A stretch of DNA of 32,000 nt, taken from an uncultured Actinomycetes bacterium (lineage in GTDB: Bacteria > Actinomycetota > Actinomycetes > S36-B12 > CAIYMF01). Location of the stretch: contig CAWJMG010000001.1 of the NCBI GenBank assembly GCA_963843975.1, positions 630,001 to 662,000 of the forward strand, read 5' to 3'. A program made the position numbers and the translations under genes. Below the pieces are notes generated by a model. It worked only from the letters and a program-made list of their open reading frames with translations, had not been told where the DNA came from and ran no database searches. The first letter of the stretch is position 1. Each line of letters starts with the position of its first letter. This document shows, piece by piece, positions 1 through 14,237 of this stretch.

Positions 1-131
1 AACTCCGCTTCCAGCGCTGCCTCCGACTGATAGGCGGAGGCCCCAGCGTCATCCGACTTGAACTCGGCAACAACAGTGCTCTCCGAGCTCAAGGCAATGG
101 GCTCGTAACGGCGAGGAGTCGAGTCGCTCAT
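1..131 (-). CDS. hsdR: Type I restriction enzyme R subunit (HsdR), first 43 codons only; gene continues beyond window start
   Basis: ATG at 131-129 overlaps the hsdS stop (ATGA). My translation is MSDSTPRRYEPIALSSESTVVAEFKSDDAGASAYQSEAALEAE... The YQSEAxLE start resembles HsdR N-termini, and the gene sits directly downstream of hsdM-hsdS. The fragment is too short for motif proof. Confidence 0.5.
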   Translation of the reverse strand, partial: MSDSTPRRYEPIALSSESTVVAEFKSDDAGASAYQSEAALEAE

Positions 132-2979: not shown

Positions 2980-3070
2980 TTAGACTCAGTTTGAGCGATT
3001 AGTACATATTCATTTAACTCCGACTTGCTCTAAAAGTCGACAATTGAGCAGGGTTCTCGTCGCCGTCTCA

Positions 3071-3084
3071 AGCCTTCGAAGGCT
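3071..3084. promoter_or_regulatory. Perfect 14-bp palindrome AGCCTTCGAAGGCT in the AT-richer divergent intergenic region between hsdM and the toroid/wHTH gene (candidate operator)
   Basis: The sequence equals its own reverse complement. It lies in the 2980-3267 non-coding gap, which contains the lowest-GC stretch of the window. Function is not demonstrated. Confidence 0.3.
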
Positions 3085-3267
3085 ATCGGTCCCCACCCAC
3101 GGTGCCCCGGACCTTGATCACGAACGGTCGGTGTCGGAGAGATGGCAACCGGCGGACTCCCTGGTCGTGGCGCACGCTGCGCTGAGCGTCGTGATCACTA
3201 CACTCCGAGCGTGCCCACCGAGGACGCCTTAGCGCCATACCCGGCAAGGCTGCAGCAGTCAGCGGAG

Positions 3268-4609
3268 ATGCTGCTACGCGTTCAGAATCGAAACTACGGT
3301 TGGGGAGTCAAGGTCGGATCCACCTCCTCCATGGTCAACACGGCCGAGGCGCTGGTAGTTCTGGCAGCCGCGGGATACGCCGGGGACTCCCGTGTCGACG
3401 GGGCTGTCGCATACATCTGCAAGAACGTGGCGATACACACGCAGACAGATGAACACGAAGGTGGCCGGGGCGAGAACACTCGATTTCCCGTATTCGCGCT
3501 AATCGGCCTAACCCAGGTTCCAGACCTCTTCATTCAAAGAGAGTCGTTGGAGGCCACTGCGTGGTGCTTGGAATGGCTGAACAGGAACAGAATCGAGACT
3601 TGGATGGCCCGAGCAAGTCGGCGGCACGAAGCCATCGGCGAGTCAGGCCGGCGGAGTTCTGTACGGGGTGGGTACCGCCTACGCACACCTATCCGCGTAC
3701 CGCAGGGCCATCGGCAAGGCGATCGGCGCGGCCCAGACGGAGAAGCTCACGGCGTCATTGAAGGACGTCGCCAGCCACGCGCTCAACGCCGTCCTCAGCC
3801 TGAGGCTCGACAGTGGCCTCTGGCCGAAGGACGAGTTCGTTGGCAGAGCACCCAGCCCGGCCAAGACCGCCCTCGTCCTCCTTGGGCTCGAACGGGCCCT
3901 TTCCTCCGACTTGCCGTTGCCGCAGACGGGACTCTTCGGCGGCGCTTGGGGCACGCCGACAATCCGTCCCTGGCGCGAGACCATCGCGTCGTCGGCCGAT
4001 CAGCTTGCTGGCATGCATAGCTCTTGGGAGCGGAAGGTCGAAGAGGACGCTGCGGTTGAGACGGCGCACTGGGTGAACCCTGCCTACGCCCTCGGGCTTG
4101 CTGGGTGCGTGAGCGGTGGCGTCCGCCCGTCCGACCGTCGGCTCGCCGCCGCCTGGCGTTACCAACATTCGCTCTGGTCGACGCAACACGCGACCTGGAA
4201 GGAGCCGGGCGGGCAGGTAACAATTCGTGCGGCCTACCACGCCGTGCGTGCCTATGAAGTCGCCCTTCAGCGTCAAGCAGGACAGGCGGTCCTGCCCGAC
4301 CTGCGAGCGGGATCACTCGGCAGCGTAAGTCATGTGACGATCACGGGAAGCTCCGTGCGTTTCCAGTTTGAAGCGAAGACCTACACCGTGTCCCTGTCGC
4401 CGCGGCTGCTGGCCGTGGTGACCCACCTGCACGACGCCACGGATGGTGCCAGCGCCCACGACTTTGCCAGTGCTCTCAACATCGAGCCGGCAAGCGTTCC
4501 TAAGTACATCGGGCGAGTGAACGATCGCGTGCGCGAAGTCACCGACCACCACGTTGGCCGGCTCATCGACGACGCGAAGGACGGCGTCTACCGGTTCGCG
4601 TCTGGGTGA
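3268..4609 (+). pseudogene. Alpha/alpha-toroid (prenyltransferase / squalene-cyclase repeat) protein with C-terminal OmpR/PhoB-type winged-helix domain; frame interrupted by a +1 shift near 3581-3600
   Basis: The frame-1 ORF (3142..4020) looks protein-like only up to ..ATAWCLEWLNRNRIE, then becomes Arg-rich junk. Frame 2 is open from 3581 (..SRLGWPEQVGGTKPS..GVLYGVGTAYAHLSAY..) to the stop at 4609. QxxxGW-type repeats are present (QNRNYGWG, RLGWPEQ, LDSGLWPKD). The C-terminus, LSPRLLAVVTHL..SVPKYIGRVNDRVREV..DGVYRF, fits the trans_reg_C pattern. I chose ATG 3268; GTG/ATG codons further upstream are possible. Confidence 0.6.
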
Positions 4610-5079
4610 TGTCGGAGCGCGTAGTGGGCCAAGGACCGCACCTGCTCGAACGTCTCGATCTCCTCTAGCTCCTTCGCACTGAACCGACGCACCTCATCCA
4701 CCTCGCTGAGCTGAGGTGTCGGCACCTGATCCGGGTGCCTCTGCCGTACGAAGTAGAACTGCACCAGCGCTGGACGCGCGAACCCCTCGACCTCGACGTC
4801 GGCATAGAACGGCACCGGCGTCGGGGTGGCGTTCGAGTCCGGCGGATGGATCACTGGGGCGGCACTCAAGACCTCGACGGCTAGGCCGGTCTCCTCGCCG
4901 AACTCTCTCTCGACGGTTCCCGCGAACGTCTCGTCGGGCTCGAGGTGCCCACCTGGTGGCACCCACAAGCGAAAACGGTTGTGGTAGACGAGAAGTACCG
5001 AGTCGCCAGACACCAGATAGCCGGAGCAGATCAGGTCCAGGCCATGGTCCTCGCCAGCGATCTGGATGCGCGACTTCAT
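4588..5079 (-). CDS. Nudix hydrolase
   Basis: Nudix box GGHLEPDETFAGTVEREFGEETGL (GX5EX7REUXEEXGU). The start at ATG 5079 (MKSRIQ..) follows GGAAGG at 8 nt; ATG 5115 is an alternative. The longer ORF back to 5346 is Arg/Pro-rich and unlikely to be coding. Confidence 0.85.
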   Translation of the reverse strand: MKSRIQIAGEDHGLDLICSGYLVSGDSVLLVYHNRFRLWVPPGGHLEPDETFAGTVEREFGEETGLAVEVLSAAPVIHPPDSNATPTPVPFYADVEVEGFARPALVQFYFVRQRHPDQVPTPQLSEVDEVRRFSAKELEEIETFEQVRSLAHYALRHHPDANR

Positions 5080-5210
5080 GGTCGCAGCCTTCCATAGGGC
5101 CTCGACCGCTGACATGTCATGCCCTCTGTCAGCGAGTTGTCCGCGTGCCGGGGTGGGTGCCGTCGTCGTCCCATTTGAGAGACCGAGAACCCCATCCCGA
5201 GGAGCGAGCG

Positions 5211-5441
5211 ATGACAGCCCACTCAGCCACGGCGTCGATGCCGGATGTCCCGGATGACGATCTCCTGCACATGTACCGAGTGTACGGCGCCGGTACCGAG
5301 CTCGACGGTTTTGCTCGGGCGTTGCTCGAGCGCGTGACCGACTCACGCCTGAACGAGACGGGCGGTGGCTCGGGCGAGGAGCTCGCTACCGCCTACCTGT
5401 GGGGCCTGATCCTCAGCGACCCCGGCACCGTCACCACCTAG
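5211..5441 (+). CDS. Hypothetical small acidic protein (76 aa)
   Basis: ATG 5211 is preceded by GGAG (5201-5204). It is the first gene of a tightly packed plus-strand gene string. I recognise no motif. Confidence 0.55.
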   Translation: MTAHSATASMPDVPDDDLLHMYRVYGAGTELDGFARALLERVTDSRLNETGGGSGEELATAYLWGLILSDPGTVTT

Positions 5442-5452
5442 GGAGGACTGTC

Positions 5453-5785
5453 ATGAGTGAGATCGTCCGGCGGAGTCAGCTCTCCGCCTCCAACCAGATC
5501 GCGAGGGTCGACCGCACCACGGGCAAGGCGCTCGAGGCGATCCGCAACGACGGCCTCCTGCACGAGGCCGACGAGTTCGTGGCGGCCCGCCTCGCGCAGC
5601 TCCGGATCGACGCCGCCAACCAGCTCGCCACGCGCGCCGTGTTCGAGATCAAGGGCTTGCACTCGCTCGTGACCGAGCTGACACGCGACAACCCCGCGCT
5701 CGAGATGGAGCTCCGGAGCTTCGCCGGCATCGTTTCCATCGGGAGCCAGCAGGTCATCGCGAACTACCTGATGAGGCCGCTGTGA
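5453..5785 (+). CDS. Hypothetical helical protein (110 aa)
   Basis: ATG 5453 is preceded by GGGAGGA (5441-5447), 12 nt after the previous stop. The composition looks coding and is predicted all-helical. No motif recognised. Confidence 0.65.
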   Translation: MSEIVRRSQLSASNQIARVDRTTGKALEAIRNDGLLHEADEFVAARLAQLRIDAANQLATRAVFEIKGLHSLVTELTRDNPALEMELRSFAGIVSIGSQQVIANYLMRPL

Positions 5786-6012
5786 GCGACGACTGGTTCT
5801 GGACCGTGGAGGGGTGGCTCCTCAAGCTCCTCATTGCCGACTTGGTCCTGCTCGGCCTGATCACGTGGGTCGAGTGGGCCCTCACCTGGTGGCGCGGGCC
5901 GTCCGAGAAGGCGGACGAGTTCGTCGCCTACATCGACGCCGAGCGTCGTCTCGACGACGTGATCGACGACGGTCGTCGCATCATCATCCAGCGCGCGCAG
6001 GAGAAGCAGTGA
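5782..6012 (+). CDS. Small membrane protein (76 aa, one TM segment)
   Basis: GTG 5782 overlaps the upstream stop (GTGA). The hydrophobic stretch WLLKLLIADLVLLGLITWVEWAL is followed by a charged tail. Confidence 0.55.
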   Translation: MSDDWFWTVEGWLLKLLIADLVLLGLITWVEWALTWWRGPSEKADEFVAYIDAERRLDDVIDDGRRIIIQRAQEKQ

Positions 6013-6167
6013 CGGTTCTGAAGTGGGCACTCGCCGCGGCCGGCGTCCTCGTCGGCACCACGCTGCTCGCCCATCTCATCACCGCCGTGATCGACCCGCT
6101 CCTCCCGCTCCTCTTCGTCCTGATCTTCGTTCTCGGAATCTTCGCCGTGGCCATACGTGGTCGATAA
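6009..6167 (+). CDS. Small hydrophobic protein (52 aa, two predicted TM segments)
   Basis: GTG 6009 overlaps the upstream stop (GTGA). The sequence VTVLKWALAAAGVLVGTTLLAHLITAVIDPLLPLLFVLIFVLGIFAVAIRGR is almost entirely hydrophobic. Confidence 0.45.
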   Translation: MTVLKWALAAAGVLVGTTLLAHLITAVIDPLLPLLFVLIFVLGIFAVAIRGR

Positions 6168-6215
6168 CGCTTGACCTTGACGGCGTTGCATTTCTGGAAC
6201 AAGATCATTTACAGG

Positions 6216-6253
6216 AAGAGGGGCTGGGGCCGAAGTAGGCCCTGGCCCCTCTT
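6216..6253 (+). terminator. GC-rich hairpin after the small-protein genes (terminator-like, or 5'-UTR structure of the next operon)
   Basis: AAGAGGGGCTGGGGCC gaagta GGCCCTGGCCCCTCTT forms 9 bp, a 2-nt mismatch, then 5 bp. It lies 49 nt after the stop at 6167 and is followed by a T-containing tract. Confidence 0.4.
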
Positions 6254-6301
6254 GCTGTCTCGCTTCGTTGCACGAACGGGACAAGTAATGAGGGCACGAC
6301 C

Positions 6302-6448
6302 ATGAGTGGACGCATCCGCATCCGAGAAGTCCGGCGCGACGAGATCGACCTCGAGAAGCTCGCCGCCGCCCTGCTGCGCCTAGCGCGTGAGCAGCTCGCG
6401 GAGCGCCGCGCCGCGGCACCCAAGCCCGCGGAGGCCCGCGATGAGTAA
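6302..6448 (+). CDS. Small ORF (48 aa) translationally coupled to the coupling-ATPase gene
   Basis: Found by hand and not on the ORF track. GAGGG lies 7 nt before ATG 6302. The peptide is MSGRIRIREVRRDEIDLEKLAAALLRLAREQLAERRAAAPKPAEARDE. Its stop TAA (6446-6448) overlaps the next ATG (ATGAGTAA). Confidence 0.4.
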   Translation: MSGRIRIREVRRDEIDLEKLAAALLRLAREQLAERRAAAPKPAEARDE

Positions 6449-8702
6449 CCCCGTTGTCATGCTCACGTTCACGGCGGTCGCGTCCATCTTCATGTTCGCG
6501 TTGCTCATGGAGGCGAGGCGCCGAGACCAGGCCGGCCGCGACCAGCGCCGCCGCGTCTTCGAGGTGCGCTTCCCCCGCAACGTGACGTCGGATCAGGTGC
6601 GCACGTTCCTCGCCGGGCTCGTCGGTCTCGCCTCTCCGCGGCGCGAGCTGGTTGGTCGTGACGCCGCCGTGCTCGAGCTCATCGGGACGGGCCGCGGTGT
6701 TCGCCACCGCCTGCGCCTGCCGGCGTCATCGGCCACCCACTTCATCGCCCAGCTGCGCGCGGCCATCCCCGGCGTCGCCATCGAGGAGATCAAGGACACC
6801 GACAAGACGTACGTCCTCCCCCGCGTCGGCGCCGCGTGCGAACTCCGCCTCACGCAGTACGGCACACCGCTCGCCATCCCCGACGTCGCCTCCATCTCCC
6901 GGCAGCTCATCGCCGCATGCCTGTCGCTTCGCTCGGGCGAGGTCGTCGTCTGGCAGTGGGTCATCACCGGCGGCACGCCAACCCCGGTCCCAGCGCCGCC
7001 CCCGGACAGCCAGACCTCCCCGTTGTGGGCGCTCGTCTGGGGGACCGGCTCGCGTCGACGCCCAGCCAGTCGGCGCACGCAGGACGAAGGGCTCATCCGC
7101 GCCACCGCGCGGATCGGGGCGCGTGCCGTCGAGCCGCGCCGCGAGGCCGAGCTCGTCGCCCGGGTTCGTCGTGTCGCGGCCAGCGTCAGTGCGCCGGGTG
7201 CCCGGCTCGTTCCTCGACAGCTTCCGAACCTCGTCGTCGCCCGGCGGATCGGCCGTGGGTCGACGCCGCTCATCGAGTCGCCGGTCGTCCTCGCCCGTGA
7301 CGAACTCACCGCACTCCTCGGTTGGCCCATCGGGGGGCCAGCCCTCCCCGGCCTCGCCCTGGGGCGTAGTCCGCAGCTACCGGTCGCGCCGGACGTTCCG
7401 CGAAGTGGTCGACCGCTCGGACGCGCCACCGTCGGCAACGGCCGGATCGTCTCGCAGTCGCTCCGGGGCGCTCGGGAGCACAGCCTCTACCTCGGGCCGA
7501 CGGGCTCCGGCAAGACGTGGCTGGCCGCGCAGGTCGCGCTGGCCGACATCACCGCCGGCCGCGGCACCCTCGTCCTTGACCCCAAGGGCGGCACGGTTCG
7601 CGCGATCCTCGAACGTCTCCCGGAGGAGGCGGTGTCACGAACCATCGTGGTCGACCCGACCGACGAGACCCGGCCGGTGCCGTTGCCGCTCCTGAGTCAG
7701 GAGGCCGGCGGCATCCCCGAGCTCGCGGCCGACACCCTGGTAGGCCTGCTGCGCCACCAACACGGCGACCTCGGACCCCGCTCCAGCGACATCTTGAGCT
7801 CGAGCCTCTACGCCCTCGCCCGCACGCCCGGGGCGACCCTGTTCGACCTGTTCCGGCTCTGGAGCTCCCCGCGCTACCGCGCCCAAGTCGCCGCCGCCTG
7901 CGCGGACGACCCGGCCTTGGTCAGCTTCTTCGCCTGGCTCGACGGACTGTCTCCGGCCGAACGCAACTTCGTCTTGGCCGCCCCTTCGAACAAGATCCGC
8001 CCGCTGATGCAGCGCCCGGCCGTCCGCAACGTCATCGCGGCACCACGCGCGACCTTCACGCTGTCGGAGGCGTTGCGCGACAACTTCGTCGTCTTGGTCA
8101 TGCTCCCGGAGGGCGCGTTGGGCTCGGAGGCGACGACGCTCATCGGGCAGGTGCTCCTGAGCCGGCTCTGGTCGGCAGTCCAAGGGCGCACGACGCGAGC
8201 CGCGGCGCACCCGTACTTCGTGACGGTCGACGAGGCTCCCCGGTTCGTCGACCAACCGACCGACCTCGGCGATGTCCTTGCCCGGTCGCGCGAGTACGGC
8301 GTCGGCGTCACCCTCATCGCCCAGACCCTTGCCCAGTTCCCGGCCGCGCTGCGCGGGGTCGTCGTTAACAGTGCCCGGACGAAGGTCGCCTTCCAAGCCT
8401 CGGCTGAGGACGCGCGTCGCCTGGCGGACGAGTTCGGGCCCATGGTCACGGCCGACATGCTCACCGGCCTGACGGCGTTCGAAGCCATCGGGGCGGTGTC
8501 GGTCGGGGGCGCCACAAGCGACCCGTTCACGTTCAAAACGGTGCCACTCGGCGACCCAATCCCCGGTCGCGCCCGTGCCACCCGAAGCGCCTCGCGCGAG
8601 CGCTGGGGCATCGCCCGCGAGGAGATCGAGGCGAGCTTCACGACCACCCCGGACGCGCCGCCAGACGCCGCCGGCCCTGTCGGTAGGAGGTCAATGCCAT
8701 GA
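6441..8702 (+). CDS. Type IV coupling protein-like ATPase (VirD4/TraD family, TraM-recognition-domain type)
   Basis: ATG 6441 follows GGAGG at 6 nt. It has an N-terminal TM helix (VVMLTFTAVASIFMFALLM), Walker A GPTGSGKTW followed by LVLDPKG, Walker B-like FVTVDEAPRF, and C-terminal EYGVGVTLIAQTLAQF. I have not excluded an FtsK/TraB-type assignment. Confidence 0.78.
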   Translation: MSNPVVMLTFTAVASIFMFALLMEARRRDQAGRDQRRRVFEVRFPRNVTSDQVRTFLAGLVGLASPRRELVGRDAAVLELIGTGRGVRHRLRLPASSATHFIAQLRAAIPGVAIEEIKDTDKTYVLPRVGAACELRLTQYGTPLAIPDVASISRQLIAACLSLRSGEVVVWQWVITGGTPTPVPAPPPDSQTSPLWALVWGTGSRRRPASRRTQDEGLIRATARIGARAVEPRREAELVARVRRVAASVSAPGARLVPRQLPNLVVARRIGRGSTPLIESPVVLARDELTALLGWPIGGPALPGLALGRSPQLPVAPDVPRSGRPLGRATVGNGRIVSQSLRGAREHSLYLGPTGSGKTWLAAQVALADITAGRGTLVLDPKGGTVRAILERLPEEAVSRTIVVDPTDETRPVPLPLLSQEAGGIPELAADTLVGLLRHQHGDLGPRSSDILSSSLYALARTPGATLFDLFRLWSSPRYRAQVAAACADDPALVSFFAWLDGLSPAERNFVLAAPSNKIRPLMQRPAVRNVIAAPRATFTLSEALRDNFVVLVMLPEGALGSEATTLIGQVLLSRLWSAVQGRTTRAAAHPYFVTVDEAPRFVDQPTDLGDVLARSREYGVGVTLIAQTLAQFPAALRGVVVNSARTKVAFQASAEDARRLADEFGPMVTADMLTGLTAFEAIGAVSVGGATSDPFTFKTVPLGDPIPGRARATRSASRERWGIAREEIEASFTTTPDAPPDAAGPVGRRSMP

Positions 8703-8824
8703 GCACCCGACGTCCAACCACCCGTCCAATCGCCGCCCGAGCGGTCTGTACAAGCTTGCAGGTCAACGCCGGACGCACGCAGGTAAGCGCGACGACATTC
8801 GCGCACGCGAGGTGTGCGCGATGA
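8699..8824 (+). CDS. Possible 41-aa micro-ORF bridging the coupling-ATPase and replication-relaxation genes
   Basis: It has ATGA overlaps at both ends (8699-8702 and 8821-8824), and 126 nt is in frame. The peptide is MSTRRPTTRPIAARAVCTSLQVNAGRTQVSATTFAHARCAR. It has no SD of its own and could simply be a spacer. Confidence 0.25.
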   Translation: MSTRRPTTRPIAARAVCTSLQVNAGRTQVSATTFAHARCAR

Positions 8825-9585
8825 GTACTACGCGACTGAGCCAACGCCGCCTCGAGCAGCTCGCCCGTGAGCTCGCCCCAAAGGACCGCGCCGTCATCGA
8901 GACGCTGACGCGGGTCAAGCTCGCGACCGGTAGCCAGCTGGTGCGCGCGCACTGGCCCCACGCCACCGACGCCGACGGTCGGGCCGCCCGCCGCGCCCTC
9001 AAGCGGCTCGTCGACTGGCGAGTTCTGGCACGCCTCGAGCGCCGCCTGGGGGGCCTCGGCCGCGGCTCCGACTCCTTCACCTACGCGCTCGACGTCGCCG
9101 CCCACCGGGTCTTGCGGCTCGAGGGCGTCGCCCGGCGGCCACACCTGCCCGGTCCCCCGATGTGGCACCACGCACTCCTCGTCGCTGAGATCTACGTCCA
9201 GCTGCTCGAGTCGCTTTGCGGGACCGAGCGACGCCTGGTCGAGTGGGAGGGCGAGCCCGCCTGCTGGCGCGACTTCGCCGGCCAGTACGGCGAGGGCGTC
9301 CGGCTCAAGCCCGACGGCTTCGCGCGCATCAGCGGACCGGGCTACCAAGACCTCTACTTCATCGAGGCCGACACCGGCACGCAGTCTCGCACCGTCATCC
9401 GCGCCAAGCTCGAGGCCTACCGCCGCTACGCCGCCGGCGGCACCGAACAGGCTCGTGAGGGCGGCGTCTTCCCCCAAGTCGCGCTCATCACCACGAGCCC
9501 GGCCCGGCACGCCGTTCTCGTCGACCTGGTCGGCGAGCTTGCCCGCCCAGTGGTGGCCGCTGTTCGTCGTCGGCCTCGCCAGTGA
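8821..9585 (+). CDS. Replication-relaxation family protein (putative relaxase/initiator of the element)
   Basis: ATG 8821 follows GAGGTG. The N-terminal winged-helix-like region LSQRRLEQLARELAPKDRAVIETLTRVKLATGSQLVRAHW and the overall layout match my recollection of the replication-relaxation family (PF13814). Its position next to a T4CP-like gene is consistent. Confidence 0.68.
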   Translation: MSTTRLSQRRLEQLARELAPKDRAVIETLTRVKLATGSQLVRAHWPHATDADGRAARRALKRLVDWRVLARLERRLGGLGRGSDSFTYALDVAAHRVLRLEGVARRPHLPGPPMWHHALLVAEIYVQLLESLCGTERRLVEWEGEPACWRDFAGQYGEGVRLKPDGFARISGPGYQDLYFIEADTGTQSRTVIRAKLEAYRRYAAGGTEQAREGGVFPQVALITTSPARHAVLVDLVGELARPVVAAVRRRPRQ

Positions 9586-9664
9586 CACCGGCTCGCTCCT
9601 CGGTGGGGAGGTGGCCTCATGAGCCGCGGTCCGCCCAGTAGAACCTCGGCCCCCCTTCCTCGGT

Positions 9665-9735
9665 GGTCTGCGGCCGTCGTCGTGAGCTCGTCACCTGAGC
9701 TCACCGGCCGCAACACCCCTGAGGAGGCTCCGGTG
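9665..9735 (+). promoter_or_regulatory. Structured leader L1 upstream of ArdC-like gene 1 (bipartite stem-loop + SD + GTG)
   Basis: Outer helix 9670-9676/9705-9711 (GCGGCCG/CGGCCGC), bulge TCGTC, inner helix 9682-9689/9697-9704 (GTGAGCTC/GAGCTCAC). The flanks are identical to L2 at 10667-10736. Confidence 0.6.
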
Positions 9736-10575
9736 GACACCACCGAAGACACCACGCTCACCCCGTCCCGACGCGAGCAGATGCTCGCTCAACTCGGTGA
9801 GCAGGCCGAGAAGCTGCGTTCGAGCGAGGGATGGGTCGCTTGGCTCAAGTTCGCTCGCAGATTCCGTAACTACTCCCTCGGCAACCAGCTGCTGATTCAA
9901 GCCCAGCAGCCGGGCGCCAAGTTCGTCGCCGGCTACCGGGCGTGGGAGTCGCTCGGTCGCCACGTCAAGAAGGGCGAGAAGGGCATCGCCATCCTCGCCC
10001 CGATGATCCGCAAGGCATCGCTCGAGGAGATCGCAGAGGACGGAGCGCTCACCGTGCTACGAGGCTTCAAGCCGGTCTTCGTCTTCGACCTGGCTCAGAC
10101 GGAGGGCGACCCGCTCCCCATCCCGGAGATGCCGCCGACCTACGTCCCTGACGACGCGCTGTTCGACCAGCTCGTCGTACTGGCGGCCAAGGCCGACATC
10201 GCGACCCGTGTCGTCGACAACGCCCCGGACGGGCTCTACGGCTGGTGGGACCCCTTCGACCGGATCATCTCCATCACCGAGGGCCAGGACATCGCCTCGA
10301 AGACCGCGACCATGCTCCACGAGCTGGCCCACGCCTTCGATCCCGAGTGCGAGTCCCCAGCCTCCGACAAGGCGGAACGCGAGCTCGTCGCGGAGTCCGC
10401 CGCCTACCTCGTCGGCACCGAACTGGGCATCGACATGCGTGAGGCCTCCTCGCACTACGTCATGACCTACGGCGCCACCAGTGATCGACTGCTCGACCTC
10501 GCCAACGAGGTCCTGATGGTCGCCACCTTCCTCGCCGACCTGACCTCGGAGCTCCCGCTCCCCCTGGCCAGCTAG
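9733..10575 (+). CDS. ArdC-like protein: N-terminal ssDNA-binding (ArdC-N/DUF1738-like) domain + C-terminal HEXXH metalloprotease domain
   Basis: GTG 9733 follows GAGGAGG. YSLGNQLLIQAQ..VAGYRAWESLGRHVKKGEKGIAILAP matches the ArdC-N pattern as I recall it. HELAHAFD is the zinc-protease motif. The ORF-track start at 9619 would run through the leader hairpin. Confidence 0.75.
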   Translation: MDTTEDTTLTPSRREQMLAQLGEQAEKLRSSEGWVAWLKFARRFRNYSLGNQLLIQAQQPGAKFVAGYRAWESLGRHVKKGEKGIAILAPMIRKASLEEIAEDGALTVLRGFKPVFVFDLAQTEGDPLPIPEMPPTYVPDDALFDQLVVLAAKADIATRVVDNAPDGLYGWWDPFDRIISITEGQDIASKTATMLHELAHAFDPECESPASDKAERELVAESAAYLVGTELGIDMREASSHYVMTYGATSDRLLDLANEVLMVATFLADLTSELPLPLAS

Positions 10576-10580
10576 GACCC

Positions 10581-10614
10581 GGGTGGGTAGGGCGCAGCCG
10601 CGTCCTACCCGCCC
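10581..10614 (+). terminator. Hairpin T1 after ArdC-like gene 1
   Basis: GGGTGGGTAGGGCGC agcc GCGTCCTACCCGCCC forms 15 pairs including 2 G-T wobbles. It starts 6 nt after the stop and has no U-tract. It is homologous to T2. Confidence 0.45.
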
Positions 10615-10666
10615 CACCCCGCACCTTGAAAGGTCGATCTCATGGAACTGCTCACCCTCCTTGGGC

Positions 10667-10736
10667 GGTCTGCGGCCGTCGTCGCGATCTGGGTCTCCAG
10701 ATCGCCGGCCGCAACGCCCCTAAGGAGGCACCCGTG
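10667..10736 (+). promoter_or_regulatory. Structured leader L2 upstream of ArdC-like gene 2
   Basis: Outer helix 10672-10678/10706-10712 (GCGGCCG/CGGCCGC), bulge TCGTC, inner helix 10684-10692/10697-10705 (GCGATCTGG/CCAGATCGC). Spacing to AGGAGG and GTG is the same as in L1. Confidence 0.6.
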
Positions 10737-11363
10737 AGTACCACCGAGATCAACCCGTTCGGCGTCGAGCTGACCTCCGACCTGCCGGTCGACAGCGCGC
10801 GCCTCCGCACAAGCGACGGCTGGGTCGCCTGGCTCAAGATCGTCCAGGCGCACCCCCACCTGTCGCTGACCGACCAGCTGCACCGGTTGAACCGGGGACT
10901 CGTTCCTGACTTCGAGCCGCGGCTGGACAGCCTCATGGCCGGACGCGACGAGCTGCTGACGCGGCTCATCGGCCTCGCCCGAACCCGAGGCTTCTACGTC
11001 GCCATCGACGAGCTCGACTGCGGTCGAGACGGCGAGTGGCACCCGATCGGCGGGGCGATCCGCCTCTCCGAATCGCTGGAGCCCGGGCGCATGGCCGCCG
11101 TCCTCATCCACGAGCTGGCCCATGCGCTCGACCCCGGCACCCGGTCTTTCGACGGCCCAGACCCGTCCGAGCGGGAACTCGTGGCCGAGTCCGCCTCGTT
11201 CGTGGCCGGCCGACGTCTCGGCCTCGACATGGACGAGGTCTCGGCCTACTTCACCGTCACGTTCGGCCTGACCGCCGAGCGCGCCGTCACGCTCGCCCAT
11301 GACGTCATCGACGTCAGCCGACGCCTCTCGGCCCTTGTTGCACAGCTGGAGGGCGACGCGTGA
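10734..11363 (+). CDS. ArdC-like paralog retaining the HEXXH protease domain but lacking the recognisable ArdC-N ssDNA-binding core
   Basis: GTG 10734 follows AAGGAGG. It shares SDGWVAWLK, IHELAHALDP and ERELVAESA.. blocks with gene 1. The YRAW..GRxVxKGEKG segment is absent. Confidence 0.65.
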   Translation: MSTTEINPFGVELTSDLPVDSARLRTSDGWVAWLKIVQAHPHLSLTDQLHRLNRGLVPDFEPRLDSLMAGRDELLTRLIGLARTRGFYVAIDELDCGRDGEWHPIGGAIRLSESLEPGRMAAVLIHELAHALDPGTRSFDGPDPSERELVAESASFVAGRRLGLDMDEVSAYFTVTFGLTAERAVTLAHDVIDVSRRLSALVAQLEGDA

Positions 11364-11369
11364 CACCCC

Positions 11370-11401
11370 GGGCGGGTAGGGCCTCACGGCTCTACCCGCC
11401 C
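11370..11401 (+). terminator. Hairpin T2 after ArdC-like gene 2
   Basis: GGGCGGGTAGGGCC tcac GGCTCTACCCGCCC forms 14 pairs including 1 G-T wobble. It starts 7 nt after the stop. The arm sequence is nearly the same as in T1. Confidence 0.45.
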
Positions 11402-11444
11402 ACCTCCCACCTGACCGTTGCAGAAATGAGACAAAAGGTTCAAA

Positions 11445-11855
11445 ATGGACAGGCAAGGAGAACTTTCCAAGGTGAACAGCAACAACCCATCCCAACTAGC
11501 CAAAGCCCTCCGTCAGGCACGCCGCCGTAGTGGACTCACTGTCCGGCAGGTGGCCGATGACGCGGGCATGACGCCAGCGACCGTGTCCCGCCTCGAGACG
11601 GGTCACATCGAGTCGCCGCGCCCAGACCACCTCGCGCGGCTCGCCCGCACGCTTGGTCTGGAGCTGGAAGACCTCTACGCACTGGCCGGCTACCTCATGC
11701 CCGAGGGACTCCCCGAGCTGAGGCCGTACCTGCGCACCAAGTACGGGCTCTCCGATCGCGCCGTGGAGCAGCTCGACGAGTACTTCCAGGCCTTGAAGCC
11801 CGGTTGGGAACGTGACAAGGAGGTTCGTCATGAACCATCAGACTCCGCCCCTTAG
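11445..11855 (+). CDS. XRE-family helix-turn-helix transcriptional regulator (ImmR-like)
   Basis: HTH_3 pattern LAKALRQARRRSGLTVRQVADDAGMTPATVSRLETG. The region upstream (11415-11444) is unusually AT-rich for this window. GTG 11472 is an alternative start. Confidence 0.85.
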   Translation: MDRQGELSKVNSNNPSQLAKALRQARRRSGLTVRQVADDAGMTPATVSRLETGHIESPRPDHLARLARTLGLELEDLYALAGYLMPEGLPELRPYLRTKYGLSDRAVEQLDEYFQALKPGWERDKEVRHEPSDSAP

Positions 11856-12408
11856 CGTTCTGACCCAAGTCCGCGACACCCTCCCGCTACGACCCCTCGC
11901 CCCACAAGAAGTCCGCGCCGTCCTCGAGCGCGCCGCCCTGAAACTCCTGACCCTGATGGACATCCCGGGGCCACCCGTCGTCGTCGGGGAGCTCATCGAG
12001 CAGCTGCCGCGCGCGATCGTGATCCGCGTCGACGGGCTCTCCACGTCGGGCCGCACCCATTGGGACGGCGTCCGCTGGATCATCGAGATCGCGGCCGACG
12101 AACCGCACGTGCGACAGCGCTACACCCTGGCCCACGAGCTCGGCCACATCCTGCTCCACCCCATCGCCGACATCATCCTGCCGAGCAACGACAACACCAC
12201 CAGTGAGAAGCGACTCGAGGCCGCCTGCGAGTTCTTCGCCGCCTGCCTGCTCATGCCCCGCGTCTGGATGAAGCGCGCCTATTTCGGAAGTGACATCCGG
12301 GACGTACCGTCACTAGCCCGGCTGTTCGAGGTCTCCTGGGGCGCCATGCGTACCCGTCTCGAGCAACTGGGTCTCATCGCCAGGATCGACACTGTGAGGG
12401 CAGCATGA
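11830..12408 (+). CDS. ImmA/IrrE-family zinc metallopeptidase
   Basis: ATG 11830 follows AAGGAGG at 6 nt. It carries the HEXXH motif YTLAHELGHILLH plus downstream ..ACEFFAACLLMP, typical of the M78/ImmA family. It overlaps the XRE gene by 26 nt and the recombinase start by ATGA. Confidence 0.85.
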   Translation: MNHQTPPLSVLTQVRDTLPLRPLAPQEVRAVLERAALKLLTLMDIPGPPVVVGELIEQLPRAIVIRVDGLSTSGRTHWDGVRWIIEIAADEPHVRQRYTLAHELGHILLHPIADIILPSNDNTTSEKRLEAACEFFAACLLMPRVWMKRAYFGSDIRDVPSLARLFEVSWGAMRTRLEQLGLIARIDTVRAA

Positions 12409-14204
12409 CCACCGAGAACGCCGTCCAAGCGGACAACCTCGCGAGCGCCGTCTCCTACCTCCGCGTCTCGACGAAGGAGCAAGCGGAGCGCGACGGCGAC
12501 CCCGAGGGGTACTCCATCCCGGCGCAACGCGAGGCCAACCGCCGGAAGGCCGCCACGTTCGGCGCCGTCGTGGTCCGTGAGTTCGTCGACCGAGGGGAGT
12601 CGGCGCGCTCAGCCAACCGCCCGCAGCTCCAGAAGATGCTCGACTTCATCGCCGGGAACCCTGAGATCGAGTACGTCATCGTCCACAAGGTCGACCGACT
12701 CGCTCGCAACCGCCTCGACGACGTCCAGATCAACCTCGCGCTCAAGAAGGCCGGTGTCACCCTCGTGTCGGCCACCGAGAACATCGACGAGACGCCATCG
12801 GGAATGTTGCTGCACGGGATCATGAGCTCAATCGCCGAGTTCTACAGCCAGAACCTCGCGTCCGAGGTCATCAAGGGCATGTCCCAGAAGGTCCAGACCG
12901 GGGGCACCCCCGGTCGAGCACCGTTGGGATACCGCAACGTCCGCGTCCTGAGCCCTGAAGGCCGCGAGGTCCGTACCGTCGCGCTCGACCCAGAGCGCGC
13001 CGAGCTGATCCGCTGGGCATTCACGGTGTACGCCACCGGCGCATGGACCATCGACTCACTCACGCAGGCGCTGGCGGACCGTGGCCTGACCAACACCCCG
13101 ACACCGAAGTTCCCGGTCCGTCCCGTGCGTCCGAATCACCTCAACGACATCCTCAAGAACCCTTACTACAAGGGTGAGATCGTCTGGCGCGGTGCTCGGT
13201 ACGCGGGCCGTCACGAGCCACTCGTCGACGGTCCGACCTGGGCCCTCGTCCAGGAGGTGCTGGCTGCTCACGCTCCCGGGGAGAAACAACGCACCCACCA
13301 CCACTATCTGAAGTCGACCGTCTACTGCGGCATGTGCGGCAGCCGCCTCATCATCACCAACTCGAAGAACCGTTACGGCACCGTCTACCCGTACTTCGTC
13401 TGTATCGGACGCCATCAGAGGCGCACCGAGTGCTTCCAGAAGGCACTGCTCATCGCCGACGTCGAAGCCAAGGTCGAGGAGATCTACGCCGGCCTCCAGC
13501 TTCCGCCCGAGCTGCGGGTCAAGATCGAGGTGATGTTGCGACGTGAGCTCGCCGAGACTCGTCGTCAAGCCGAGTCCGAGCTGCGCTCACTCACGACTCG
13601 ACACGAGCGGCTGACGCACGAGCGCACCAAGTTGCTCCACGCGCACTACGCCGGTGCCATCCCGCTCGCGCTACTAAAGACCGAGCAGGACCGCATCGCG
13701 GCGCAGCTCGAGGTCATTGAGGCGCGCTTGGCTGCCAGCCAAACCCACTTCGACGACATCGAACGAAACCTCGCGATCGCTCTTGACCTCTCGTCAGACT
13801 GCCACCGCGCCTATATGACCGCCGACGACCACACGCGGCGCCTTCTCAACCAGGCGTTCTTCACGAAGCTCTACGTCGACGAGGAGCCCCGAGCTGACCT
13901 GGCCGAGCCGTTCAAGACGCTGCTGGGGATCGACGTCATGAGGGCCGTAGGCATGGCGGGGGATGACGACGCGGAGCTCATCGGGCATCGAGCACGAACC
14001 CGCGTAGGAGCCGGAGTCGCCACTGACGGAGTCGGCGTGCCCGCCGGCTGGTCGGTCAGCTACATCCGACAGGTCCGGAGCGTCGGGAAAGCTCAGGCCC
14101 CTCGAAAATCAAAACCTCCACGTGGCCGAAGCCTTCGTGAAGGTTTGAAAGAGAACTATCTGGTGCCCCCGGCAGGGCTCGAACCTGCACTTGTCCCGGT
14201 TTAA
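12405..14204 (+). CDS. Large serine recombinase (integrase of the element)
   Basis: Resolvase catalytic domain (SYLRVSTKEQ with the Ser nucleophile, VHKVDRLARN), recombinase domain, zinc ribbon CGMCGSRL..FVCIGRHQRRTEC and a coiled-coil segment. The last ~100 aa are low complexity. The stop TAA at 14202-14204 lies in the tRNA anticodon loop. Confidence 0.92.
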   Translation: MTTENAVQADNLASAVSYLRVSTKEQAERDGDPEGYSIPAQREANRRKAATFGAVVVREFVDRGESARSANRPQLQKMLDFIAGNPEIEYVIVHKVDRLARNRLDDVQINLALKKAGVTLVSATENIDETPSGMLLHGIMSSIAEFYSQNLASEVIKGMSQKVQTGGTPGRAPLGYRNVRVLSPEGREVRTVALDPERAELIRWAFTVYATGAWTIDSLTQALADRGLTNTPTPKFPVRPVRPNHLNDILKNPYYKGEIVWRGARYAGRHEPLVDGPTWALVQEVLAAHAPGEKQRTHHHYLKSTVYCGMCGSRLIITNSKNRYGTVYPYFVCIGRHQRRTECFQKALLIADVEAKVEEIYAGLQLPPELRVKIEVMLRRELAETRRQAESELRSLTTRHERLTHERTKLLHAHYAGAIPLALLKTEQDRIAAQLEVIEARLAASQTHFDDIERNLAIALDLSSDCHRAYMTADDHTRRLLNQAFFTKLYVDEEPRADLAEPFKTLLGIDVMRAVGMAGDDDAELIGHRARTRVGAGVATDGVGVPAGWSVSYIRQVRSVGKAQAPRKSKPPRGRSLREGLKENYLVPPAGLEPALVPV

Positions 14205-14237
14205 GCGGGATGCCTCTGCCAGTTGGGCTACGGGGGC
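14161..14237 (-). tRNA. tRNA, anticodon UAA (nominally Leu) but with a short 5-nt variable loop; identity uncertain
   Basis: Hand-folded cloverleaf of GCCCCCGTAGCCCAACTGGCAGAGGCATCCCGCTTAAACCGGGACAAGTGCAGGTTCGAGCCCTGCCGGGGGCACCA. Acceptor GCCCCCG/CGGGGGC; anticodon stem TCCCG/CGGGA with loop CTTAAAC; T arm GCAGG-TTCGAGC-CCTGC; A73; CCA encoded. The D stem has one mismatch or extra base. Confidence 0.75.

Follow-up and report, generated by a model that had tools for sequence, protein, structure and literature searches.

A covarying hairpin pairs the Shine-Dalgarno sequence of ArdC-like genes in actinobacterial mobile elements and may act as a translational gate

The timing of anti-restriction and other establishment gene expression in mobile elements is little known beyond a few enterobacterial and Bacillus plasmids, which use ssDNA promoters, RHH repressors, or the EGeRS1 repeats, whose mechanism is still unsolved (PMC8708921). 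The stretch of 32,000 nucleotides analyzed here (the window) raises this question through two neighboring ArdC-like genes whose leaders carry the same structured element. What does this element do? The genes and associated features are as follows.

8821-9622, + strand: Replic_Relax (MOBC-class) relaxase-like gene, directly 5' of hairpin copy 1 (Pfam PF13814, 1.4e-34)
9733-10575, + strand: ArdC-like anti-restriction gene 1, 280 aa from GTG, with an ArdcN domain and a metallopeptidase-like C-terminus
10581-10614, + strand: GC hairpin after ArdC gene 1, z -3.4, without a U-tract, ~41 nt 5' of hairpin copy 2
10643-10737, + strand: 31-codon ORF from 5' of copy 2 across the entire hairpin to TGA 10735-10737
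10734-11363, + strand: ArdC-like paralogue 2, 209 aa, comprising the C-terminal metallopeptidase-like part with most of the ArdcN domain absent
11370-11401, + strand: homologous GC hairpin after ArdC gene 2, z -5.4

Gene 1 matches Pfam PF08401 (8.8e-11) and has 2513 homologues, many of which are named antirestriction protein ArdC; paralogue 2 has weak DUF6782 and Peptidase_M78 matches and is 35% identical to the C-terminal 145 aa of gene 1. Replic_Relax proteins constitute the MobC class (PMC5357655). Alignments to the relaxase of a related locus (L001) indicate that the relaxase gene of the window is frameshifted near 9540-9550, with the first 243 aa in the ORF at 8575-9585 and the conserved C-terminus in the frame ending with TGA at 9620-9622. 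The two GC hairpins that follow the ArdC-like genes have GGG(T/C)GGGTAGGG...CTACCCGCCC in common. A direct repeat of the tRNA-Leu end, as expected of an att site, was not found within positions 1-12000.

The initial annotation described the two leaders as sharing an 18/18-nt block, GGTCTGCGGCCGTCGTCG (9665-9682 and 10667-10684, 1002 nt apart), and a 3' block, CCGGCCGCAAC(A/G)CCCCT(G/A)AGGAGGC (9705-9729 and 10706-10730), which fold into an outer helix GCGGCCG/CGGCCGC, a TCGTC bulge, and an inner helix (GTGAGCTC/GAGCTCAC in copy 1 and GCGATCTGG/CCAGATCGC in copy 2). All of these are present, and the spacing from the end of the outer helix is indeed 10 nt to AGGAGG and 21 nt to GTG. The leaders are also better conserved than the coding sequences, as had been claimed, given proteins only 35% identical over a 145-residue alignment. 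The bipartite stem-loop corresponds to helices P3 and P4 and the bulge between them; its outward continuation through P2 and P1, which contains the Shine-Dalgarno (SD) sequence, had been missed. The full hairpin spans ~75 nt and is composed of four helices, P1-P4, in two copies on the + strand.

9655-9727, + strand: hairpin copy 1, recognized by RNA fold, covariance model (CM) matches, and covariation
9655-9663 / 9719-9727, + strand: copy 1 P1, anti-SD CUUCCUCGG with SD arm CUGAGGAGG
9665-9667 / 9715-9717, + strand: copy 1 P2, GGU/ACC
9669-9676 / 9705-9712, + strand: copy 1 P3, UGCGGCCG/CGGCCGCA
9677-9681, + strand: copy 1 bulge, 5 nt, UCGUC
9682-9690 / 9696-9704, + strand: copy 1 P4, with its loop at 9691-9695
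9722-9727 and 9733-9735, + strand: gene 1 SD (AGGAGG, in the P1 3' arm) and GTG start
10656-10728, + strand: hairpin copy 2, recognized by RNA fold and CM matches
10656-10665 / 10719-10728, + strand: copy 2 P1, anti-SD CCUCCUUGGG with SD arm CCUAAGGAGG
10667-10669 / 10716-10718, + strand: copy 2 P2, with 3' arm GCC instead of ACC
10671-10678 / 10706-10713, + strand: copy 2 P3, with its bulge at 10679-10683
10684-10692 / 10697-10705, + strand: copy 2 P4, GCGAUCUGG/CCAGAUCGC, with its loop at 10693-10696
10723-10728 and 10734-10736, + strand: gene 2 SD (AGGAGG, in the P1 3' arm) and GTG start

The basal helix P1 (9-10 bp) pairs an anti-SD sequence with the SD itself, and the SD arm lies ~6 nt 5' of the GTG start; the stem as a whole is ~30 bp long and is broken by the conserved asymmetric bulge. 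Folding of both leaders, which had been proposed as a check, gave RNA minimum free energies of -47.5 kcal/mol for copy 1 (z = -4.2) and -51.5 kcal/mol for copy 2 (z = -5.6; -53.5 kcal/mol in a second fold), with 0 of 200 shuffles equally stable in either case. Folds with DNA parameters had z-scores of -5.2 to -8.6, and CM matches scored 101 and 88 bits for copy 1 and 90 and 77 bits for copy 2. The complete structure is far above chance, unlike the bare outer-helix pattern, which is only weakly so (2 matches versus 0.30 expected, with 6 of 100 shuffles reaching 2). The two differences within the 3' block respect the fold: for one, the 5' flank carries the matching change (C9661-G9721 in copy 1 is U-A in copy 2), and with the other (A9716 to G) a U-A pair becomes U·G. 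Conservation of the 5' block is not protein-coding, because the ORFs that cross it are in different phases in the two copies (element lengths of 42 and 41 nt); P4 length differences that are not multiples of three likewise exclude a coding explanation.

Related metagenomic elements that encode a T4CP-like ATPase and a Replic_Relax/MOBC relaxase provided 28 distinct instances, composed of 26 in our alignment (A4) and two more (L116 and L117). An RNAalifold consensus of the 7 homology-derived copies contains 27 pairs, with compensatory changes in 8. Conserved pairing in homologous leaders had been set beforehand as the check on selection for structure: across the 26 aligned instances, 92.2% of cells were paired (80.8% in shuffles), and double compensatory changes occurred in 13 of 27 pairs (62 cells). 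None of 500 shuffles reached these values, and slid controls were 27-53% paired. This family-wide covariation strongly supports the initial view that selection acts on structure rather than on primary sequence. Conservation of P3, the first four P4 pairs, and AGGAG is partly imposed, as the search pattern that yielded 21 of the 26 aligned instances required these segments.

The SD of the following gene is base-paired in a conserved helix that is kept by compensatory substitutions. Double changes occur in 5 of the 8 pairs of the P1/P2 region, and a GGAG core lies within the P1 3' arm in all 26 aligned instances and in L116 and L117, with AGGAG in all but one. P4 and P1 sequences vary freely yet stay complementary, and the P3 arms are nearly invariant (GCGGCCG/CGGCCGC); the invariance of P3 and of the base of P4 suggests sequence-specific recognition by some partner. 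The P3 arms are separated by 22-31 nt, and the register toward the gene is fixed: P3 lies 10-11 nt from the SD, and the SD lies mostly 4-9 nt from the start codon. In every instance the motif terminates in the SD of the following gene, whichever of four unrelated families that gene belongs to (ArdC, the ArdC protease-domain paralogue, an RHH-type gene, or a gene of ~109 aa without an assigned function). The original description as a leader of ArdC-like genes thus holds for both genes of the window and is too narrow for the family, which also includes the RHH-type and ~109-aa genes. Tandem copies, direct and 0.5-1 kb apart, occur in five loci (the window, L099, L101, L103, and L109).

The fold is selected on the sense strand. 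At the second P4 pair we counted U·G in 10 instances, C-G in 9, U-A in 7, and C·A in none, though the search pattern permitted C·A, and the U·G cases are spread over ~8 sub-lineages (our own grouping); this wobble asymmetry identifies the sense strand as the one that folds. Over the whole alignment G·U outnumbers A·C by 40 to 17, with most A·C in loosely aligned P1/P2 columns, and in the copies that were not pattern-retrieved (L005, L116, and L117) P3 varies by wobble pairs only. The wobble evidence is the same for RNA and for + strand DNA. Comparison of folding energies (mean difference -1.06 kcal/mol, 17 versus 9) is too weak to separate the strands, and DNA folds are equal on both.

The hairpin matches no named leader or riboswitch, in agreement with the initial annotation: Rfam 15 at gathering thresholds returned only two tRNAs in the whole window, and an E-value scan of 9560-10780 returned nothing overlapping either hairpin. 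Among the matches listed from a scan of genome contigs with an ArdC alignment, all of at most 41% identity, two covariance models (R1 and R2) found no motif at the 80 loci, which sets a bound on its distribution. A blastn search of 9600-10760 against PLSDB plasmids and INPHARED phages matched ArdC coding sequence only, and a pattern scan of viral contigs gave a single match (L092), which lacks the anti-SD and looks like chance.

With moderate confidence, we posit that the hairpin is a cis-acting translational gate in the sense-strand mRNA, probably opened by ribosomes arriving from upstream. Post-transcriptional control, the first of three hypotheses offered with the initial annotation, is favored by the SD in a helix, the sense-strand wobbles, and the fixed register across four gene families. 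P1 would lock the SD of the next gene against the conserved anti-SD, and a stability of ~-40 to -55 kcal/mol would keep independent 30S binding near zero, so that the establishment gene (ArdC, the protease-domain paralogue, the RHH protein, or the ~109-aa protein) would be translated only once the 5' arm is pulled out, most likely by a ribosome. The hairpin would presumably reside within a longer transcript. A scan for sigma-70-like promoter consensus from the relaxase gene to ArdC2 found none, and this absence fits co-transcription with the upstream genes; TANNNT was not seen in the ~40-nt spacer before copy 2. No terminator-like site was found in 8400-11600. An intrinsic terminator was rejected for the hairpin itself, a GC stem without a U-tract in which P1 is followed by a spacer and a start codon.

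Upstream translation could open the gate in different ways. In loci where the motif follows a methylase gene (L093, L095, L097, L108, and L110), the methylase stop, a TGA, lies 20-24 nt before P3 and 3 nt before the anti-SD arm of P1, and an ATG or GTG overlaps it. In this subgroup, P1 would have to be melted by a ribosome that terminates or re-initiates there. In relaxase-type copies, represented in the window by copy 1, the candidate opener is a short upstream ORF (uORF) over the relaxase stop.

9619-9636, + strand: start of the uORF, with an ATG that overlaps the relaxase stop (ATGA, stop 9620-9622)

Codons 3-6 of this uORF encode R-G-P-P (9625-9636), and the frame runs on into ArdC. An R[GA]PP uORF with [AG]TG overlapping the relaxase stop is found at 10 loci, and in most of them, not all, it reads into or through the hairpin. 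Among these loci, only third positions vary in the Arg and Pro codons, and residue 2 alternates between Gly and Ala (GGN/GCA), so that the R-A/G-P-P sequence of relaxase-type copies appears to be under purifying selection. RGPP and RAPP are known arrest motifs, and uORFs encoding them precede diverse genes in Actinomycetota (PMC12992588). The RGPP codons (CGCGGUCCGCC) can form 10 of 11-12 pairs with the P2/P3 5' arm in the window, L002, and L004; we rejected this pairing as a GC-rich coincidence, as it is poor in L005 and L099.

Coupling to upstream translation cannot be a complete account, because a conserved upstream ORF is missing from copy 2 and from several more of the secondary copies. 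Candidate openers for secondary copies that follow a GC hairpin, copy 2 among them, would be RNase processing, a local uORF, or some factor recognizing the invariant core of P3, bulge, and P4 base. The stop codon of the 31-codon ORF across copy 2 overlaps the GTG start (GTGA), and this ORF is not conserved at other secondary copies. An [AG]TGA stop overlapping the main start was counted in 8 of 26 instances, a frequency that does not clearly exceed chance. If the relaxase frameshift is real, coupling to copy 1 would be broken in the window. Strong SD occlusion also sits oddly with the expected need for rapid anti-restriction expression in a new host.

Leader-peptide coupling of this kind, with SD-sequestering stem-loops opened by upstream translation, operates in plasmid R1 (tap-repA) and in ColIb-P9 (repY-repZ). 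The hairpin also resembles the stems of secM-secA and mifM-yidC2, in which the downstream SD is paired within a stable stem; in the methylase subgroup and in most relaxase-type copies an upstream ORF likewise ends at or enters the 5' arm. As in SecM-class monitors, relaxase-type copies have a short uORF with an arrest-type motif (PMC7897499, PMC12992588), and SecM-type stalls relieve an SD-sequestering stem (PMC7897499). In contrast to these systems, to which it has no sequence relationship, the hairpin is a reusable conserved module found before four unrelated genes and, in some elements, present twice; the stem lies 19-25 nt away from the putative arrest site, the uORF is very short and lacks a sensor domain, and some copies have no upstream ORF.

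A more specific proposal, which we consider rather unlikely, is that this family of integrative mobilizable elements has a dedicated switch for establishment genes, with the hairpin as its output stem. Either arrest at the RGPP/RAPP uORF, coupled to relaxase translation, would unlock the stem, or a host or element factor would bind the P3/bulge/P4-base core, so that ArdC, the protease-only paralogue, and the RHH regulator would be translated at one particular stage of transfer only. The geometry does not match an arrest switch, in which Pro3 in the P site and Pro4 in the A site should place the ribosome on the stem 5' arm. The P-site codon of RGPP in relaxase-type copies is 19-25 nt 5' of the anti-SD, and a stalled ribosome with its leading edge at the expected ~+13 would end ~8-10 nt short of P1 and therefore would not melt P1 directly. 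Nor does the uORF have the layout of an arrest protein, with a C-terminal motif and an N-terminal localization or sensor segment: only 4-9 residues precede R[GA]PP, and the motif is C-terminal only in L002 and L005. If arrest does unlock the stem, anti-restriction genes would for the first time be seen under the control of an arrest peptide, and the uORF allows the biology of arrest motifs to be tested on a mobile element.

A role in mRNA processing or stability is unlikely. The hairpin and the GC hairpins would then mark intercistronic cleavage (e.g., by RNase III within the long, imperfectly paired stem or by RNase E/J in the stretch separating the two hairpins), yielding monocistronic mRNAs with protected 5' and 3' ends, and SD pairing would be incidental or the SD would be freed by cleavage. 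The arrangement of gene, GC hairpin, 10-41 nt, motif, and gene recurs in the window and in L114, L112, L103, L106, and L101 (in these five loci at 10-15 nt), which leaves no space for a promoter between GC hairpin and motif. The GC hairpin at 10581-10614 is intercistronic, has two G·T wobbles on the + strand, and is terminator-like or 3'-stabilizer-like. Phage RNase III sites are long stems with an asymmetric interruption, comparable to the bulged stem described here, and sense-strand folding is expected for this role as well. However, stability alone leaves unexplained both the compensatory upkeep of anti-SD/SD pairing and the upstream stops that abut the 5' arm in the methylase subgroup.

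The sense-strand bias applies equally to + strand DNA. A DNA hairpin in the + strand, or a cruciform, could serve as an oriT-like site for the MOBC relaxase, as a single-strand initiation site where complementary-strand synthesis begins, or as a recombination boundary of exchangeable cassettes. This reading we judge improbable. It is suggested by the position of copy 1 directly 3' of the Replic_Relax gene, the high significance of the DNA folds, the G·T wobbles, which fit + strand DNA, and the conservation of both ends of the ArdC cassettes when the coding parts are just 35% identical. Adjacency to the relaxase gene, however, is restricted to first copies; elsewhere the motif is far from it, following methylase, recombinase, ArdC, or unknown-A genes. 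An oriT would be a single site per element, and direct tandem copies, as in five loci, would be expected to be unstable for it. A primer on the + strand hairpin would extend away from ardC, and the motif invariably finishes in an SD whose spacing to a start codon is fixed. The integrase of the element is a serine recombinase, not integron-type. An integron attC reading was rejected on the same ground and because the AAC that follows P3 varies (CACC, CAUC, or CCUC in other subfamilies).

Less probable again is a double-stranded operator for an element-encoded RHH or XRE repressor, the second hypothesis of the initial annotation, which would provide transient zygotic expression after transfer. 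The closest known systems of this kind are ArdK-type regulation in IncW and IncN plasmids and the EGeRS2/Reg576 operators. In p576, Reg576 operators precede ardC and other establishment genes (PMC6294495, PMC8708921). Similarly, one cis element precedes several establishment genes here, including an RHH gene in some elements, so that an RHH protein can be among those controlled, and the near-invariant P3 arms could be binding sites. EGeRS2/Reg576, however, consists of duplex-DNA heptamer operators in strong promoters (PMC6294495), whereas the hairpin shows sense-strand pairing and no -10/-35-like promoter overlaps it. The distance between P3 arms (22-31 nt) would vary the phasing of operator half-sites, P4 and P1 change yet remain complementary, and the occurrence of U·G but never C·A is unexpected in duplex DNA. 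In addition, no RHH gene adjoins the motif in the element of the window.

Repeated hairpins before anti-restriction genes are a hallmark of the leading regions of F-like and other plasmids (PMC11541004), and the Frpo/ssi hairpins of F and ColIb-P9 resemble ours in this respect. A Frpo-type ssDNA promoter, in which a hairpin in the transferred template strand drives ardC transcription before second-strand synthesis, was the third initial hypothesis, together with an oriT-like role, and is very improbable. The - strand folds well too, but a template-strand fold is disfavored because C·A, its equivalent of U·G, does not occur at the informative P4 pair. The tandem copies disfavor the oriT-like role; TANNNT is absent on either strand in 26 of 27 instances at an AT content of 25-35%, and the SD in the stem leaves the -10 and TSS no room upstream. 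The stem of ~30 bp is also much shorter than the Frpo region, which Masai and Arai are said to have put at ~330 nt in 1997. Frpo rebuilds -35, -10, and UP elements in its long template-strand hairpin (PMC11541004), and here such elements are absent and the SD is in a sense-strand stem.

Two further systems invite comparison. FinP/traJ-type antisense-controlled leaders have stem-loops that involve the RBS in the 5' leader of a conjugation-related gene, and their loops differ between elements, as they do here. An antisense partner is disfavored because both strands would have to fold, whereas the wobble asymmetry favors one strand, and no antisense promoter was detected from the relaxase gene to ArdC2. 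EGeRS1 of pLS20-family plasmids (Val-Calvo et al. 2021, PMC8708921) is likewise conserved, GC-rich, rich in inverted repeats, and repeated right before the RBS of ardC and other establishment operons; neither element has a SigA-type promoter, and for EGeRS1, too, an ssDNA-promoter role has been judged unlikely (PMC8708921). EGeRS1 differs in spanning 420-750 bp with multiple branches in low-GC Bacillus plasmids (PMC8708921), as opposed to a single ~75-nt hairpin that includes the SD. We compare the two by description, the blastn search of PLSDB plasmids having returned no leader match.

A translational gate would add a post-transcriptional solution to those listed at the outset: a family of high-GC integrative mobilizable elements would share a portable, covarying module that masks the SD and is used repeatedly before different establishment genes. 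The hairpin is short and well defined, and hence directly testable by compensatory mutagenesis, and the motif could mark establishment or anti-defense cargo in metagenomic elements. One related locus (L115) is without the canonical motif; there, a different hairpin directly after the relaxase gene pairs the SD.

The leaders of the two ArdC-like genes in the window each carry a structured element that is real, statistically solid, and uncatalogued. The initial annotation described an 18-nt block (9665–9682 and 10667–10684) and a 25-nt 3′ block (9705–9729 and 10706–10730, with two differences between copies), an outer helix GCGGCCG/CGGCCGC (hereafter P3), a bulge TCGTC, and two unrelated inner helices (P4), all of which are present as stated. 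The hairpin is longer than was proposed; 85-nt RNA folding places two further helices, P2 and P1, outside P3:

Both leaders, + strand: P2, GGU/ACC (GCC in copy 2), outside P3
9655–9663 with 9719–9727, + strand: P1 of copy 1, CUUCCUCGG with CUGAGGAGG, 9–10 bp
10656–10665 with 10719–10728, + strand: P1 of copy 2, CCUCCUUGGG with CCUAAGGAGG, 9–10 bp

Because P1 pairs an anti-Shine–Dalgarno (anti-SD) sequence with the SD region, the stem encloses the SD AGGAGG, which lies 6 nt ahead of the GTG. Taken by itself, the short outer-helix pattern exceeds chance only marginally (2 found, 0.30 expected; 6 of 100 shuffles reach 2). The complete RNA fold has a minimum free energy of −47.5 (copy 1) and −51.5 (copy 2) kcal/mol (z = −4.2 and −5.6), none of 200 shuffles was as stable as either real copy, and DNA parameters give z values of −5.2 to −8.6. 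Of the two 3′-block differences, one is genuinely compensated, the C-G pair of copy 1 being U-A in copy 2. Given that the two downstream proteins have diverged (35% identity over 145 residues) and that the shared 5′ block is crossed by ORFs whose phase differs between the copies, conservation is at the nucleotide level. The motif (hairpin plus SD) occurs exactly twice in the window. Each P3 arm includes CGGCCG, a self-complementary hexamer of the EagI type (9670–9676, 9705–9711, 10672–10678, and 10706–10712); pairing of this sequence in trans, or from one tandem copy to the next, is conceivable.

Across 26 distinct instances, standard pairs occupy 92.2% of cells, compared with 80.8% in shuffled controls and 27–53% with slid partners, both sides change in 13 of 27 pairs (62 cells), and 0 of 500 shuffles reach any covariation measure; the earlier claim of selection on structure is thereby strongly supported. 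P4 is almost completely changed beyond its first four pairs, with a loop variable in sequence and length, and five pairs in the P1/P2 region have double changes. The near invariance of P3 is partly imposed by the search pattern, yet it is also true of homology- and covariance-model-derived copies, in which P3 changes are wobbles only (CGGUCGC in loci L005 and L116; GCGGCUU/GGGCCGC in L117). P4 pair 2 is the most telling position: the search pattern had admitted all four combinations there, and we found U·G 10 times, C-G 9 times, U-A 7 times, and C·A never; the U·G cases fall into about eight separate sub-lineages by our own grouping. Overall there are 40 G·U versus 17 A·C wobbles, most of the latter in loosely aligned P1/P2 columns. 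Both biases indicate that selection acts on folding of the sense strand, presumably as RNA; folding of the + strand as DNA is less plausible. Single-sequence folding energies with RNA or DNA parameters do not separate the strands.

Homology-guided sampling of ArdC relatives at 85–47% identity found the same architecture in loci of related metagenomic elements (L001, L002/L003, L004, L005, L011, L116, and L117), and a degenerate-pattern scan of metagenome contigs recovered 22 loci, all 22 with a 5′ anti-SD, a 3′ SD, and a start codon. The same kind of scan of viral contigs gave a single match that looks like chance. The covariance model detected second, tandem copies ~520 nt upstream in L099, L101, L103, and L109, flanking a gene ahead of ArdC for a ~109-aa protein without an assigned family; two of these pairs are located as follows:

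L099, 2363–2451 and 1840–1926, − strand: tandem motif copies
L101, 1133–1224 and 1653–1740, + strand: tandem motif copies

In the first copies of L099 and L101, an extra 12-bp helix joins the start of an upstream ORF (uORF), AUGAGGCGAGUGC, to the region of the main start codon, GCACUCGCUCAUG. Neither covariance model finds the motif at 80 loci with distant ArdC (≤41% identity; among the matches listed), and plasmid and phage collections match the ArdC coding sequence only, never the leader; the motif is thus confined to one clade of elements. In L115, whose ArdC is 51% identical, the canonical motif is absent and a different hairpin after the relaxase gene (2620–2680; CGUCCGUGG...CCACGGAC, with CCUCUUUCG against CGAGGAGAGG) pairs the SD, which suggests that function is retained when the sequence is exchanged.

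The motif always ends in an SD, with 10–11 nt from P3 to the SD and mostly 4–9 nt from the SD to the start. The initial description of these sequences as leaders of ArdC-like genes is correct in that ArdC genes do follow, but they are not ArdC-specific. The downstream gene encodes a full-length ArdC, an ArdC C-terminal-only protein (window copy 2, L106, and L107), an RHH-like protein of ~109 aa (in some loci via a 14–15-codon ORF with an ATGA overlap), or a ~109-aa protein of no assigned family. Because the gene varies, we regard the motif as a portable 5′ module of establishment/regulatory genes.

The genomic setting, based on Pfam matches, is as follows:

128–2979, − strand: hsdS and hsdM (type I restriction-modification), in a lower-GC stretch (0.57–0.60) left of the element's unknown ORFs
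Between hsdS/hsdM and the ATPase gene: several ORFs with no Pfam matches
Upstream of the Replic_Relax gene: 771-aa T4CP-like ATPase (weak TraG/VirD4 matches)
After the ATPase, before ArdC-like gene 1: Replic_Relax protein
After the Replic_Relax gene: ArdC-like gene 1, then the shorter ArdC paralogue
After the paralogue: XRE, ImmA/IrrE peptidase, then large serine recombinase
12405–14204, + strand: serine recombinase ORF, its 3′ end overlapping tRNA-Leu on the other strand
14161–14237, − strand: tRNA-Leu(taa), overlapping the last ~44 nt of the recombinase ORF

Replic_Relax proteins are the MobC relaxase class (PMC5357655). Just past tRNA-Leu, GC content rises from ~0.66 to 0.72–0.75; the element probably integrated here and has its right end here, and a search for an att direct repeat to the left was negative. 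No VirB4 or other type IV secretion genes were identified among the Pfam matches, the module order is identical in relatives, and the whole resembles a small integrative mobilizable element, with hsdS/hsdM either its cargo or a neighboring island. Relative to L001 and L104, the Replic_Relax gene is frameshifted at ~9540–9550 by one extra base in CTTGCCCGCCCAG (ORF 8575–9585 versus a frame that closes at 9622 and holds the final ~24 conserved residues), which points to a pseudogene or else to an error in sequencing. A strong GC hairpin without a U-tract follows each ArdC-like gene (10581–10614 and 11370–11401); the two are homologous, the + strand of each contains G·T wobbles, and at one position a change between copies is compensated. 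The ArdC cassettes are thus conserved at both ends around coding parts only 35% identical, a pattern that gene conversion or a cassette-like organization could explain. Judged by eye, the sole promoter-like region of the ArdC–XRE interval is a stretch of comparatively high AT content (ttgcagaaatgagacaaaaggttcaaaatgg, 11400–11480) ahead of the XRE gene.

Three upstream situations occur. Where a DNA-methylase gene (N6_N4_Mtase) precedes the motif, its TGA stop, overlapped by ATG/GTG, lies 3 nt from the anti-SD in 5 of 5 distinct loci; a terminating ribosome would necessarily occupy the P1 5′ arm, the textbook arrangement for coupling by SD unmasking. In the relaxase class, to which window copy 1 belongs, the ATG/GTG start of a tiny uORF overlaps the TGA stop; the sole conserved feature of this uORF, preceded by 4–9 residues, is R-[G/A]-P-P (10 loci: window 9619–9636, L001, L002, L004, L005, L099, L101, L104, L116, and L117; for example, MSRGPP, VRRERGPPV*, MTRIERAPP*, MRRVLCRGPPP, and VSAAWWSRGPP). 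Arg and Pro codons vary at third positions only and residue 2 alternates between Gly and Ala, which indicates selection on the peptide. The uORF runs into or through the hairpin in most loci, in frame with ArdC in the window, L104, and L001; the relaxase frameshift, if real, would uncouple it from relaxase translation. In the third class, which includes window copy 2, another cassette gene is followed by a strong GC hairpin without a U-tract, 10–41 nt before the motif, with neither room nor signal for a promoter in between and usually no upstream ORF. A 31-codon ORF at 10643–10737 begins 13 nt ahead of copy 2, with AAAGG 8 nt upstream of its ATG; it spans the whole hairpin and closes with a TGA that overlaps the GTG of ArdC-like gene 2 (GTGA), and it is not conserved in other loci.

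From these sequence comparisons, the best-supported reading is an mRNA hairpin on the sense strand that masks the SD. The stability of ribosome-binding-site structure is related to translation efficiency, and on this basis independent initiation at a hairpin of −40 to −55 kcal/mol would be negligible. Downstream translation would depend on displacement of the 5′ arm, which ribosomes from upstream clearly could achieve in the methylase subgroup and plausibly in the relaxase subgroup. The near-constant core (P3, the bulge-terminal C, and GYGA-UCRC) suggests that an extra sequence-specific partner may exist. With the SD inside the stem and a sense-strand wobble bias, post-transcriptional control is favored among the functions initially proposed. 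A processing or stability element would accord with the paired intercistronic hairpins, would leave the selected SD pairing unexplained, and is unlikely. The wobble statistics are also compatible with a + strand DNA function (oriT, ssi, or cassette boundary), which we consider rather improbable because tandem direct copies, motif occurrences remote from the relaxase gene, and a fixed register to start codons fit it, and the oriT-like proposal, poorly. An operator for an element-encoded regulator, bound as duplex in the manner of Reg576 of p576 (PMC6294495), is still more doubtful: the P3 arm spacing varies (22–31 nt), the variable sequence stays complementary, the wobbles are strand asymmetric, and a promoter is absent. 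A Frpo-like single-stranded DNA promoter (PMC11541004) is very improbable, as the opposite strand would have to fold and −35/−10 elements are required, whereas 26 of 27 instances lack even TANNNT.

SD masking is a familiar principle, which groups the hairpin with the SD-sequestering coupling devices of secM-secA, mifM-yidC2, R1 tap-repA, and ColIb-P9 repY-repZ; the setting is under-studied. The hairpin belongs to no Rfam family, so that the initial failure to match a named leader or riboswitch holds, and we found no described equivalent in the literature. In biological role, the closest sequences are the establishment gene regulatory sequences of the pLS20 family, conserved structured repeats directly upstream of the ribosome-binding sites of ardC and other establishment operons, among which the mechanism of EGeRS1 is still unsolved (PMC8708921). 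The uORF beside the hairpin, here in a mobile element, is the most intriguing lead. Its R-[G/A]-P-P matches exactly the RAPP/RGPP ribosome-arrest motifs reported in 2021–2025. These are the two strongest arrest motifs; they are EF-P-refractory, act in varied N-terminal contexts, and in Actinomycetota precede diverse genes (PMC12992588). Under the SecM paradigm, the SD-sequestering stem is opened when a ribosome stalls (PMC7897499), whereas here the P-site Pro codon lies 19–25 nt before the anti-SD, so that a stalled ribosome would end 8–10 nt short of P1.
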